From positions 1 through 13,528 of the forward strand of contig JAZDNO010000013.1 of the NCBI GenBank assembly GCA_043799545.1: 13,528 bases of DNA, in the 5' to 3' direction. The notes under the pieces were generated by a model. That model was not told the DNA's origin, ran no database searches, and worked only from the letters and a program-made list of their open reading frames with translations. Below, piece by piece: positions 3,073 through 13,528 of this stretch (the stretch's first letter is position 1; each line of letters opens with the position of its first letter). Position numbers and translations under genes: made by a program. Source of the DNA: Methanobacteriota archaeon. GTDB lineage: Archaea > Thermoplasmatota > Thermoplasmata > SG8-5 > DAIRED01.

Positions 3073-3145
3073 GCCGTCGTAGCTCAGCTGGTGGAGCGGC
3101 TGACTGTTAATCAGCAGGTCCAAGGTTCAAATCCTTGCGACGGCG
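3073..3145 (+). tRNA. tRNA-Asn (GTT)
   Basis: Cloverleaf: GCCGTCG/CGACGGC acceptor, GCTC/GAGC D-stem, GCTGA-CTGTTAA-TCAGC anticodon arm, CAAGG-TTCAAAT-CCTTG T-arm, G discriminator; no encoded CCA. Confidence 0.97.
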
Positions 3146-3147
3146 CT

Positions 3148-10903: not shown

Positions 10904-11044
10904 GCCAAGCCTCAAGCTAGGTAGAGTATCGAAAAACCTTTTCAGATTTACCTTTCCTCGATTTTCAGGGATTCTCTGGGTCATTATGGCATCGTTTTTT
11001 ACCACGGCGAGATTCAGCATCTAAAATTCGCTCACCGTGGAGTC

Positions 11045-11107
11045 GGACTAGCTTCCCGCTGAGTGAATGACAAAAACCGCTAGTCCTTTCCGGGTGGGAG
11101 CCCATCC
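11045..11107. repeat. Hairpin plus inverted copy of the tRNA-Val 3' end
   Basis: GGACTAGC/GCTAGTCC stem (11045-52/11079-86), then TCCGGGTGGG-ag-CCCATCC (11089-11107), the reverse complement of 11131-11147 with a 2-nt insertion. Confidence 0.8.
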
Positions 11108-11551: not shown

Positions 11552-11653
11552 TGGCCCGAGAATGTGACGGTAATTGAACTCGGGCCAGACACGGCCTAGC
11601 TCGCAAATTCCATATTGAACACATACCGCTAGGCCTATCCCGACACCCTTTGC
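11552..11653. repeat. Two hairpins plus inverted copy of the tRNA-Gly T-arm and 3' end
   Basis: TGGCCCGAG/CTCGGGCCA (11552-60/11579-87), GGCCTAGC/GCTAGGCC (11593-600/11628-35), then ATCCCGACACCC (11637-48), the reverse complement of 11673-84. Confidence 0.8.
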
Positions 11654-11669
11654 TTTCATGAAAAACCTG

Positions 11670-11743
11670 TGCGGGTGTCGGGATTTGAACCCGAGTTATC
11701 AGCTTGGCAAGCTGAAGTGATAGCCAGACTACACTACACCCGC
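11670..11743 (-). tRNA. tRNA-Gly (GCC)
   Basis: GCGGGTG/CACCCGC acceptor, TCAGC-TTGCCAA-GCTGA anticodon arm, TCGGG-TTCAAAT-CCCGA T-arm, A discriminator, followed by a T-run. Confidence 0.97.
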
Positions 11744-11771
11744 GCTCTGCATATCAAATGTTTTTATCCGC

Positions 11772-11827
11772 GCGGGTTCCCTCGGAAAAGGCTCCCAGAT
11801 TGGCTTCCTTTTCCTCGGTACACCCGC
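11772..11827 (-). ncRNA. Candidate 56-nt structured RNA, unit 1
   Basis: GCGGGT-GTA-CCGAGG-AAAAG-[17 nt]-CTTTT-CCGAGG-GA-ACCCGC; rod hairpin with a tandem G.A pair; covaries with unit 2. Transcription is inferred. Confidence 0.7.
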
Positions 11828-11854
11828 ATTTTGCTTATTAATGCTTTTTGTCAT

Positions 11855-11910
11855 GCGGGTTCTCTCGGGAAAGGTTCGCACATCAGCGGTCTTTCCCTCG
11901 ATACACCCGC
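11855..11910 (-). ncRNA. Candidate 56-nt structured RNA, unit 2
   Basis: GCGGGT-GTA-TCGAGG-GAAAG-[17 nt]-CTTTC-CCGAGA-GA-ACCCGC; TTTAATA box 28-34 nt upstream (11938-11944). Confidence 0.7.
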
Positions 11911-11951
11911 CCTGGCGTTCGGGGAATTATTGCCTCGGTATTAAACGTTTC

Positions 11952-12236
11952 CTACTTCTGCTTCTTCAGCATCTCGTTTATCTCGGCTGAGTTCATATGC
12001 CCCTGGACGTTGATGTCGACATTGGTGACGCCCTCGACCTGCGCCACGGCGCTCTTTATCGCCACGGCGAGCTGGATTCCCATCGGGCAGAACGGGCTCG
12101 TCGGAGTGAAAGTCAAGGAGACCTTTTCCGGCTCGACCTTCAAGTTGGTTATCAGCCCCATCGTGTACACGTCAAGCCCCGTGTGCGGGTCCATCACGGC
12201 CTTCAGCTTCTCCACCACCTTTTCCTCTTTTTCCAT
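11952..12236 (-). CDS. DUF59/MIP18-family iron-sulfur cluster assembly protein
   Basis: VMDPHTGLDVYTMGLI and TPTSPFCPMG motifs; GGAGGTG SD overlapping the valS end. Confidence 0.9.
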   Translation of the reverse strand: MEKEEKVVEKLKAVMDPHTGLDVYTMGLITNLKVEPEKVSLTFTPTSPFCPMGIQLAVAIKSAVAQVEGVTNVDINVQGHMNSAEINEMLKKQK

Positions 12237-12238
12237 AT

Positions 12239-13528
12239 TTACACCTCCACCAGTACCGTCAATCCTCGAATCGAAACCGAATTCACCATCTTGCCATGAG
12301 ACTTCAGCCCCTTCTCGATTTTCACGTCGCCCTTGGAAATTTCAGCCTGCGTGCCGTCGTCGAACGTGAGCAGTAGGTGTCCAGATTCCAGGGCCTTGGC
12401 CGCGTCCTCGACGGGCATGCCTGCCAATGCATCGTAGACTTCTTTGGCTTTTCCCCTGAATTTCGGACCGAGCGTCGCCTTGTTGGGCTTCACAGCCGTC
12501 GGTACCTCTTCCACAACCGAATCCTGGGTTATCACCAGGCGATTTATCTTCAGCGTCCCAACGATGTCGTCCTCGCAGCCCAGAAGGGCCGATGAGCCCT
12601 CGCCGGAAATCTCGATGGCGGCCAGCTCCGCGTTGAGGGCCATCCGGTTGTCCGACTTCCACGATCTCACGCCCGCGATGACGTCCCGCAGCAGATCGCC
12701 GCGCTCCTCCTCCTCGTCGTCGAAGAGCGCTGGCTCTGGCCACGGCGCGGTCGTGATGCTGAGCCACGGCTCAGTCTGGATGAAGTGCGAGTGGTAAATC
12801 TCCTCGGCGATGTGGGGCATTATCGGGGCGAGCATCCTCAGGACGCCCAGCGAAACCGTGTAGAGCGCGTACTGGACCCCCTTGTCACCCGCAGCCATCC
12901 GGTGCTTCGCCATCTCGAGGTAATGGTCCGCGAACTCGTGCCACAGGAACTGCTCGACTGCGCGGAGCGCCGCGTCGAACTGGCAGTCCTCCATCGCCTT
13001 CGTCGCCGCCTCCACGGTCCGGCTGTACTTGGAGAGAATCCATAGGTCTGCCGGCTTGAGGTCTTCCGCCGTCGCCCCCGGCTTACCCTTCACGCTTATC
13101 CCGACGAACTTGCAAACGTTCCAGAGCTTGTTGCATAGCTTCTGGCCGTGGACGACCTCCTTCACCTGGAAGGCCTGATCGACGCCGAGGGTGCACGTGG
13201 CGGCGAAGTAGCGCATCGCGTCCGCCCCGTACTGCTCCAGCAGCGGGATGGGGTCTATGATGTTGCCCAGCGAGGTGTGCATCGGCGTGCCGTCCGGAGC
13301 CATGATGAAACCGGAAATCATCGTCTCGCCCCAAGGCCTTTTTCCGGTTATCTGGAGGCATCGGAGTATCGTGTAGAACGTCCAGGTGCGGATGATCTCG
13401 TGGCTCTGGGGACGGATGTCCTCCTCGCCAGCGAAGCCGCCGGGGACGTCGCGCTGCTCGGCGGTGCAGCCGGGGGGTGTCAGTCATCGGGTCGATGGGG
13501 AGCTGGTCGATCGATGGCAGGATCGGGT
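12239..13528 (-). CDS. valS: Valyl-tRNA synthetase, 3' part (archaeal type); frameshifted near 13478 and apparently missing an internal segment
   Basis: The frame extends upstream of the called ATG through RPQSHEIIRTWTFYTILR; GNIIDP..YGADAMR, KLCNKLWNV, FLWHEFADHYLE and the anticodon-binding tail are present. LPIDPMTD lies in a different frame upstream of 13478. Confidence 0.9.

Follow-up and report, generated by a model that had tools for sequence, protein, structure and literature searches.

The tRNA genes of a genome are normally among its most static loci. In the stretch of archaeal DNA analyzed here (the window, 13,528 nt), two tandem hairpins that begin with a copy of the start of tRNA-Gly lie directly upstream of the tRNA-Gly(GCC) gene, and an essential single-copy tRNA is now found 167 nt behind its promoter with both hairpins in between. 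What these hairpins are, how they came to this position and whether they act as RNA are the questions that this locus raises. The initial annotation had proposed that they are excised from a common transcript with the tRNA as small RNAs with a constant scaffold and a variable, guide- or decoy-like payload.

Two fold-back units ahead of tRNA-Gly(GCC)

All features of the locus lie on the minus strand. After the stop codon of an Fe-S assembly gene comes a canonical BRE/TATA promoter (AAACG-TTTAATA-C, 11938–11950), recognized by its sequence and by the motif and spacing seen in relatives and located 28 nt ahead of the first base of the distal unit U2 (11855–11910). The TTTAATA box noted earlier ahead of U2 was confirmed as part of it (11939–11945). 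U2 is followed by an A-rich linker of 27 nt (linker 1, 11828–11854), the proximal unit U1 (11772–11827), a second A-rich linker of 28 nt (linker 2, 11744–11771), the tRNA-Gly(GCC) gene (11669–11743) and a T5 run (11661–11665), the likely terminator of the tRNA transcript. The tRNA was called by both ARAGORN and cmscan and is the sole gene with that anticodon found in the assembly. Linker 1 contains a BRE/TATA-like box at non-canonical spacing and a T5 run on the opposite strand, and linker 2 is of the type found ahead of other tRNAs that carry such units. Two plus-strand ORFs that overlap the units (11669–11944 and 11848–12369) had no Pfam match.

Re-reading of the sequence showed that U2 and U1 are real 56-nt hairpins located where they had been placed. 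Both start with GCGGGTGTA, nucleotides 1–9 of tRNA-Gly(GCC), and both finish with ACCCGC. In U2, the copy of tRNA nucleotides 1–9 (hereafter X1) occupies positions 11902–11910, the 17-nt loop 11874–11890 and the complement of nucleotides 1–6 (X') 11855–11860; the corresponding parts of U1 are 11819–11827, 11791–11807 (a loop of the GAAGCCA type) and 11772–11777. A repeat finder returned the 83-nt start-to-start period, and a comparison of the repeats showed that the linkers resemble each other. The arms of the two units differ at positions 10, 16, 42 and 48 only, which form two compensatory pairs (C-G/T-A and A-T/G-C), as had been stated.

Each unit folds to a single hairpin, of −30.7 kcal/mol for U2 and −28.7 kcal/mol for U1 (z = −5.1 and −6.0), and none of 200 shuffled sequences was as stable. 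Folds of the opposite strand are weaker (−24.5 and −25.7 kcal/mol). As the initial annotation anticipated, no known RNA family was found, with no Rfam call for the units at the gathering score or at E ≤ 10; the top non-tRNA match in Rfam 15, to a fly lncRNA model at 18.7 bits against a threshold of 40, is a chance one. ARAGORN and cmscan called only the three true tRNAs, no match of the units to the tRNA clan (RF00005) appeared even at E ≤ 10, and the units have no T-arm-like domain. Several known RNA architectures were considered and rejected. An archaeal box C/D or H/ACA guide sRNA does not fit upon inspection, since the tandem G.A pairs lie in a symmetric 2×2 loop with no 3-nt bulge and there is no pocket; the ACA that follows U2 is not conserved in U1 or in the units of tRNA-Gly(UCC). 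A K-turn does not fit by inspection either, and, judged from sequence and folds, the conserved loops produce the 3-4-3 arrangement of a bulge-helix-bulge motif in no register.

Downstream of tRNA-Gly(GCC) an inverted 12-nt copy of the tRNA 3′ end (T-stem and acceptor strand; 11637–11648) is present, with 12 of 12 positions complementary and a spacer of 24 nt. Together with a further hairpin that comes after it, this copy is the 3′-side counterpart of the upstream units. This arrangement is seen twice in the window: behind tRNA-Gly (11590–11648, minus strand) and behind tRNA-Val (11040–11105, minus strand) a spacer of ~24–29 nt with a T-run precedes an inverted copy of the tRNA's own 3′ end, and near-identical hairpins, GGCCTAGC..GCTAGGCC and GGACTAGC..GCTAGTCC, lie beyond the copies. 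Upstream of tRNA-Asn (3073–3146, plus strand), in the segment 2937–3072, a TATA-like box is followed by 21 nt identical to the tRNA-Asn 5′ end, then by hairpins of a different module type (CCTCGG...CCTTCGG flanks, loop GCAAGGCATTTGGAGA) and lastly by an A-rich linker, an architecture that is the same as that at tRNA-Gly.

Elsewhere in the window, the ORF 12239–13321 (minus strand) encodes only the final ~48 residues of a class I tRNA-synthetase catalytic domain and the anticodon-binding domain. Between it and the contig end, the upstream sequence stays open in a different frame and had no Pfam match; the ORF may be short because of a frameshift, because the gene is a truncated paralog, or because the assembly is faulty at the end of the contig.

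A family of modules that copy the end of the neighboring tRNA

A relaxed pattern search, followed by a covariance model (R1) with six copies from this genome as its seed, revealed that U1 and U2 belong to a family with the scaffold YCGAGG-stem-loop-stem-CCGAGRGA. The scaffold comprises a 3×2 purine loop (G-K-A opposite G-A), two base pairs followed by tandem G.A in CCGAGG/CCGAGG, and a stem of 6–8 bp with a loop of 16–19 nt. In this genome R1 gave six strong matches and several weak ones, and almost all of them lie next to a tRNA gene. Apart from U2 and U1, two copies lie ahead of tRNA-Gly(UCC) and others downstream of tRNA-Ala(GGC), tRNA-Pro(GGG) and tRNA-Cys, with weaker matches upstream of tRNA-Ile and tRNA-Arg. 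U2 and U1 are seed sequences of the model and score 72.6 bits (E 6e-19) and 75.9 bits (E 5e-20), respectively; members outside the seed, in two related species, reach 72.5 bits. Both units have the family scaffold and covarying stem, and in both the outer stem is formed by a copy of the adjacent tRNA end and its complement, within ~300 nt of the tRNA.

The two related species, one of the same genus (G001) and one of another family of the order (G002), have 6–7 matches each, and three more relatives have weak ones. The covariance model places the scaffold at no fewer than eight sites in this genome (G000), and also in these two species. A tRNA gene (Gly, Glu, Ala, Pro, Asp, Arg or Phe) is the neighbor at 11 of the 14 loci fetched from relatives. 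When a degenerate pattern was run against 185,579 species genomes, 52 matches were obtained; five of them, in two Thermoplasmatota MAGs, had complementary stems and tRNA context, and the remaining ones had no complementary stems. A scan of viral contigs returned two matches, which are attributed to chance because both are inside coding sequence of GC-rich phages. Two metagenome contigs carry the module, one identical to a G001-like species and the other from a third species with the same synteny. Full-text literature searches returned no description of such modules. They make up a lineage-restricted, apparently undescribed family of small folded modules, or cassettes, beside tRNA genes in a few uncultured Thermoplasmata.

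In an alignment of 25 members, 95% of the stem cells are paired and 12 of 15 pairs are altered on both sides, compared to 19–52% paired in slid controls. The search of related genomes with the covariance model therefore upholds the earlier idea of a conserved structured family with compensatory changes in the arms. The description of the core as variable in sequence and fixed in length needs correction. The loops of U1 and U2 are indeed both 17 nt long and mutually unrelated, but at the level of the family loop length varies between 16 and 19 nt and is greater in some members, and most loops share the consensus GAAGCCA-(A/T-rich)-NNNN-AGC, from which the U2 loop is an outlier. In its 5′ half the loop is specific to the genome, with GAAGCCA shared by G000 and G001 and GACUACA present in G002. 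Between species, arms are identical and loops differ. The Asp and Gly units of G002 have a common 40-nt core with 2 nt different and unrelated X1 and X', which shows concerted evolution and a recent spread to a new tRNA.

The “tRNA-Gly ends” of U1 and U2 are one case of a general rule. In units for which the downstream copy was located, X1 is 9–12 nt long and identical to the adjacent tRNA end as read in the orientation of the unit. In upstream units (Gly, Ile, Arg) it is the tRNA 5′ end in sense, and in downstream units (Ala, Pro, Cys, Glu, Asp, Phe and, in G002, Gly) it corresponds to the T-stem and acceptor 3′ strand read as the reverse complement. X' is complementary to X1, and the internal order is X1, scaffold, X', an A-rich linker of ~27 nt and the tRNA end. 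The acceptor ends ascribed to the hairpins are therefore present in U1 and U2 but are not a general property, as the outer stem takes its sequence from the tRNA end that happens to lie next to it, antisense T-stem sequence among others, and is not an acceptor mimic as such.

To place the rule on a genome-wide scale, copies of at least 9 nt of a tRNA's own end were counted around 49 ARAGORN predictions and compared with a permuted-tRNA control. Direct copies of the 5′ end were found upstream of 13 tRNAs (control, 1.2), direct copies of the 3′ end downstream of 21 (control, 1.5) and inverted copies of the 3′ end downstream of 22 (control, 3.3). Copies of the opposite polarity were at the control level. 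In this genome, about half of the predicted tRNA genes are accompanied by structured, covarying modules that contain copies of the genes' own ends. As to the orientation of the units themselves, eight lie on the 5′ side of a tRNA and read in sense, and 11 lie on the 3′ side and read antisense. This polarity rule is not absolute, because composite trailers at other loci hold similar hairpins in the other orientation.

A related arrangement was observed in a further relative, G005, in which one trailer, consisting of a hairpin (GCCGCATCC..GGATGCGGC), a second hairpin and a copy of the tRNA tail, lies behind many different tRNAs (C41:10690-11400 and six other loci). In the same genome, six or more CGAGG-like units stand in an array behind tRNA-Gly(GCC); their constant outer stem is a copy of the trailer hairpin, not of the tRNA.

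Insertion behind the promoter and candidate roles in RNA

The empty state of the locus is preserved in relatives. At the syntenic locus of G002, marked by the same Fe-S assembly gene, BRE/TATA is followed by 27 nt and tRNA-Gly(GCC) with no cassette in between, and in six further relatives BRE/TATA and 24–27 nt immediately precede this tRNA. In G000, in G001 and on the metagenome contig of the third species, the equivalent promoter and ~28 nt are found ahead of the distal cassette. Thus, the cassettes were inserted behind the promoter and must lie within the leader of pre-tRNA-Gly. Their number varies in the genus: where G000 has U2 and U1, G001 has a 23-nt remnant and one unit, with arms and linker that match U2 and a loop that resembles that of U1.

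Canonical tRNA promoters of G000 begin 31–38 nt before tRNA +1. All tRNAs with 5′ cassettes in this genome have an A-rich linker box of the CATTGA type at −22 to −5 instead, and at several of these loci a canonical promoter lies ahead of the distal copy. Both linkers at tRNA-Gly(GCC) (11828–11854 and 11744–11771, minus strand) contain canonical-looking BRE/TATA boxes (CAAAAAGC-ATTAATAA) 7–9 nt before the next unit or the tRNA; these were rejected as promoters, since such spacing would put the start inside the tRNA or the unit. The sense strand from the promoter to the tRNA has no T5 run, and both linkers have one on the antisense strand. When inverted, the 5′ linkers read like tRNA trailers. 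Co-transcription of U2, U1 and the tRNA, as assumed in the initial annotation, is strongly implied by the sequence: the sole canonically spaced promoter precedes U2, and no sense T5 run occurs before the tRNA. Given the promoter position, the lack of a sense T5 run and the fact that no other gene with this anticodon was found, tRNA-Gly(GCC) should be transcribed through at least U1, and transcription through both units is most likely.

The reading that we favor, to which we assign about an even chance of being right, is that U1 and U2 are tandem gene-less fold-back cassettes of DNA-level origin, transcribed at this locus as a self-sequestering leader. They would have arisen by insertion into DNA and tandem duplication behind the tRNA-Gly promoter, and because of this position they would be transcribed as the 5′ leader of pre-tRNA-Gly. 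Each cassette would fold co-transcriptionally to a very stable hairpin in which the spare copy of the tRNA 5′ end is tied to X' and hence unable to compete for the 3′ acceptor strand of the tRNA. X' would then be the part that neutralizes the duplicated tRNA end, and the whole leader would be removed by an RNase P cut at tRNA +1. When the full precursor is folded to minimum energy, the tRNA 3′ end is taken up by X1 of U1 and the true tRNA 5′ end by X', and this mispairing suggests that an unsequestered spare copy could misfold the precursor. The hairpin in which X' is paired with X1 (hairpin A) has −30.7 kcal/mol, an advantage of ~15 kcal/mol over the pairing of X' with the tRNA (−15.5 kcal/mol).

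The same two pairings could be used as a two-state switch, with the tRNA free when X' pairs with X1 and blocked when X' pairs with the true tRNA 5′ end (hairpin B); in this model a factor that binds the scaffold or loop might gate the maturation of tRNA-Gly. Hairpin B is 8 bp long, since the outer 2 nt at both ends of every Gly linker examined pair together; in linker 1 these outermost nucleotides lengthen the pairing between X' and the next X1. The linker ends show a compensatory change between orthologs (AT/AT in G000 and AC/GT in G001), hairpin B has energies of −15.5 and −12.1 kcal/mol (z between about −2.5 and −2.8), the alternative pairing is the one adopted when the full precursor is folded to minimum energy, and the scaffold sequence is conserved. 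However, hairpin A has the advantage in stability given above and is the first to form, the mirror arrangement on the 3′ side, with the scaffold antisense, is at odds with a single RNA logic, and the compensatory change can be explained by template-switch repair of a quasi-palindrome. We consider such a switch very unlikely.

The proposal of the initial annotation, that U2 and U1 are small-RNA genes of their own, cut out by RNase P and tRNase Z and acting in trans through their loops as a guide, decoy or, by extension, a protein sponge, is in keeping with the implied co-transcription. It also agrees with the position of the acceptor-like 6-bp stem, which begins precisely at the equivalent of tRNA +1, with the high stability of the folds, with the conservation of the tandem G.A and of the GUA/GA loop on the sense strand, and with the conserved 5′ half of the loop, as would be expected for the binding site of a trans-acting factor. 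The loops, however, do not behave as a payload. They follow a family consensus that is genome-specific, and a search of both genome strands with all loops (exact matches, up to two mismatches, and 11–12-mers) returned chance-level copies and complements only; the closest, a 14-nt same-sense match of the U2 loop within a coding region (C28:13861), has ~0.06 expected by chance and was judged a chance match. Thus, the idea of a constant scaffold with a variable guide or decoy was not borne out. Loops that depart from the consensus are found in distal units (U2 and a unit on metagenome contig L113). Furthermore, the 11 antisense units downstream of tRNAs lie behind a T-run and have T-stem sequence in the outer stem, with no acceptor end, and neither the lack of a T-arm-like domain and of an Rfam tRNA score nor the near absence of G-U pairs (see below) fits a processed small RNA. 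Small-RNA genes of this kind are therefore unlikely.

A probable origin at the level of DNA

In the family, only 2 of 346 stem pairs are G-U and 3 of 346 are A-C. Typical structured RNAs do not show such strict Watson-Crick complementarity, which speaks for an origin at the level of DNA. The mirror symmetry of the units, sense at tRNA 5′ ends and antisense at 3′ ends with a constant internal order towards the tRNA, is likewise to be expected if the underlying process works on duplex DNA. If the cassettes were purely selfish or neutral, however, there would be no obvious explanation for the non-Watson-Crick loops conserved on one strand, the conserved 5′ half of the loop and the compensatory 2-bp change at the linker ends.

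One DNA-level alternative is that the cassettes are recombination sites recognized as folded single-stranded DNA, similar to REP sequences with a RAYT/Y1 transposase or to integron attC sites, which a host recombinase reads and places at tRNA ends. Mismatches that are conserved strand-specifically in a hairpin that is otherwise fully Watson-Crick paired and does not tolerate G-T, concerted evolution inside genomes with spread to new tRNAs, and the G005 units, which are a dispersed repeat with a constant outer stem, would all be natural for such sites; a Y1 transposase gene, mostly single-copy, is present in 18 of 25 related genomes. The Y1 genes, however, are flanked by different hairpins with no CGAGG module seen beside them, they occur also in relatives that have no CGAGG module, and insertion of the IS200/IS605 type duplicates no target, either direct or inverted. 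We regard this alternative as quite unlikely. No enzyme could be linked to the cassettes in G000: it has one serine recombinase, four tyrosine recombinases and three Y1 transposase domains, and none of these genes adjoins a module. Cas1, reverse transcriptase and IS110 transposase were not found in this 94%-complete genome.

Could the cassettes be scars left in tRNA genes by ordinary integrase integration, or partial tRNA duplications that are decaying? A tRNA end copied directly beside a tRNA gene is the classical mark of an att site, X1 on the 3′ side stops at the T-loop boundary, a known integrase crossover site, and three integrase genes adjoin tRNA genes in G000. A true integration event in the same genome allows a comparison. 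A 20.6-kb element (C12:53840-74695) is integrated at an intron-containing tRNA-Trp, with the integrase beside the tRNA, an IS200-type Y1 transposase within and, at the far end, two att copies at a distance of 106 nt. Its junction is plain; at the far end of the element, an older array (trailer, inverted copy, hairpins and direct copy) is still attached to the original 3′ end that was displaced, and hairpin arrays therefore predate this integration and are independent of it. The cassettes differ from such a junction in their gene-free 83-nt period, in the covarying structured scaffold found at many different tRNAs and in the inverted copy X' that is always present, and arms that are identical across species next to loops that differ are the opposite of uniform decay. 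Duplication of an integrase att site was rejected on these grounds, and scars or decaying duplications in general are highly improbable.

Each of the nearest known systems shares one feature with the cassettes and fails on others. The attL and attR sites of tRNA-targeting tyrosine integrases of archaeal viruses and plasmids are also direct copies of a tRNA end outward of an intact tRNA gene, with 3′-side identity that ends at the T-loop boundary; unlike them, the cassettes are 83-nt units with no integrase or cargo, always have the inverted copy and structured scaffold, and are found at tRNA 5′ ends behind the promoter as well. The RtT small RNA of Escherichia coli (Rfam RtT) comes from 178-bp repeats that lie distal to tyrT. 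These too are arranged in tandem within the transcription unit of a tRNA whose own end is copied in each of them, but they are bacterial, lie on the 3′ side, are far longer and do not fold back around the copy, and the cassettes have no Rfam match. REP/BIME elements with RAYT, MITEs and integron attC sites resemble the cassettes as short gene-less imperfect palindromes in which structure is conserved more than sequence and which evolve in concert in each genome. The cassettes, in contrast, are strictly tied to the ends of tRNA genes, have an outer stem templated from the target and could not be linked to an enzyme.

The t-elements are tRNA-like structures that serve as processing signals for RNase P and tRNase Z in plant mitochondria (PMC1920247), and in Haloferax a t-element was used for RNA release (PMC4326828). 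As in the cassettes, an acceptor-stem-like helix lies beside a real gene in one transcript, and release by tRNA-processing enzymes is conceivable; in contrast to t-elements, the cassettes have neither a T-arm-like domain nor a tRNA score, and many copy non-acceptor sequence or lie antisense. In Aciduliprofundum boonei, of the same phylum, the 3′ end of tRNA-Pro with its T-loop palindrome is the target of a casposon, and ~15 bp of the target are duplicated directly (PMC5137440). That duplication overlaps the tRNA by 5 bp only and no inverted copy of the target is formed. Since Cas1 was not found here and the geometry of target duplication is different, a casposon model was rejected.

The gene-less fold-back cassettes favored here may belong to an as yet undescribed Thermoplasmata system that builds fold-back modules on either side of tRNA genes, templated by the tRNA end in one direct and one inverted copy. 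It would be either a new mechanism of target-templated insertion or a two-state RNA device that gates maturation, presumably with a trans-acting factor that reads the purine-loop scaffold; this we put forward as a tentative possibility. Mobile modules would represent an element that has no genes and adapts its ends to each target; modules acting as RNA would add a new layer of control or quality assurance to tRNA maturation. Either way, they account for many of the “partial tRNA” and “att-like” repeats in Thermoplasmata assemblies, and the covariance model allows them to be annotated. The 5′-side version with its comparison to empty sites, a covariance model of one module family, the evidence against a guide function and the demonstration that a real integrase event does not make modules are new here.

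Three further observations concern Y1 transposase genes. A Y1 (IS200-like) gene lies directly upstream of tRNA-Leu(GAG) in G000 (C25:29915-30700) and in G001 (contig L120), and in both species of the genus a copy of the middle part of the tRNA is present between the two genes. The motif AACAAGCCTCGTCTGTAAGGGCGGGG follows tRNA-Leu(GAG) in this genome and is found directly after the Y1 gene in G002 and G005, which suggests that tRNA-Leu(GAG) may sit inside an IS200-like unit. Finally, a gene at C28:10918-12276 of G000 (minus strand; L087:1419-2777) encodes a 452-amino acid protein in which a Y1-transposase-like domain is combined with a C-terminal domain similar to the nuclease of Shedu SduA.
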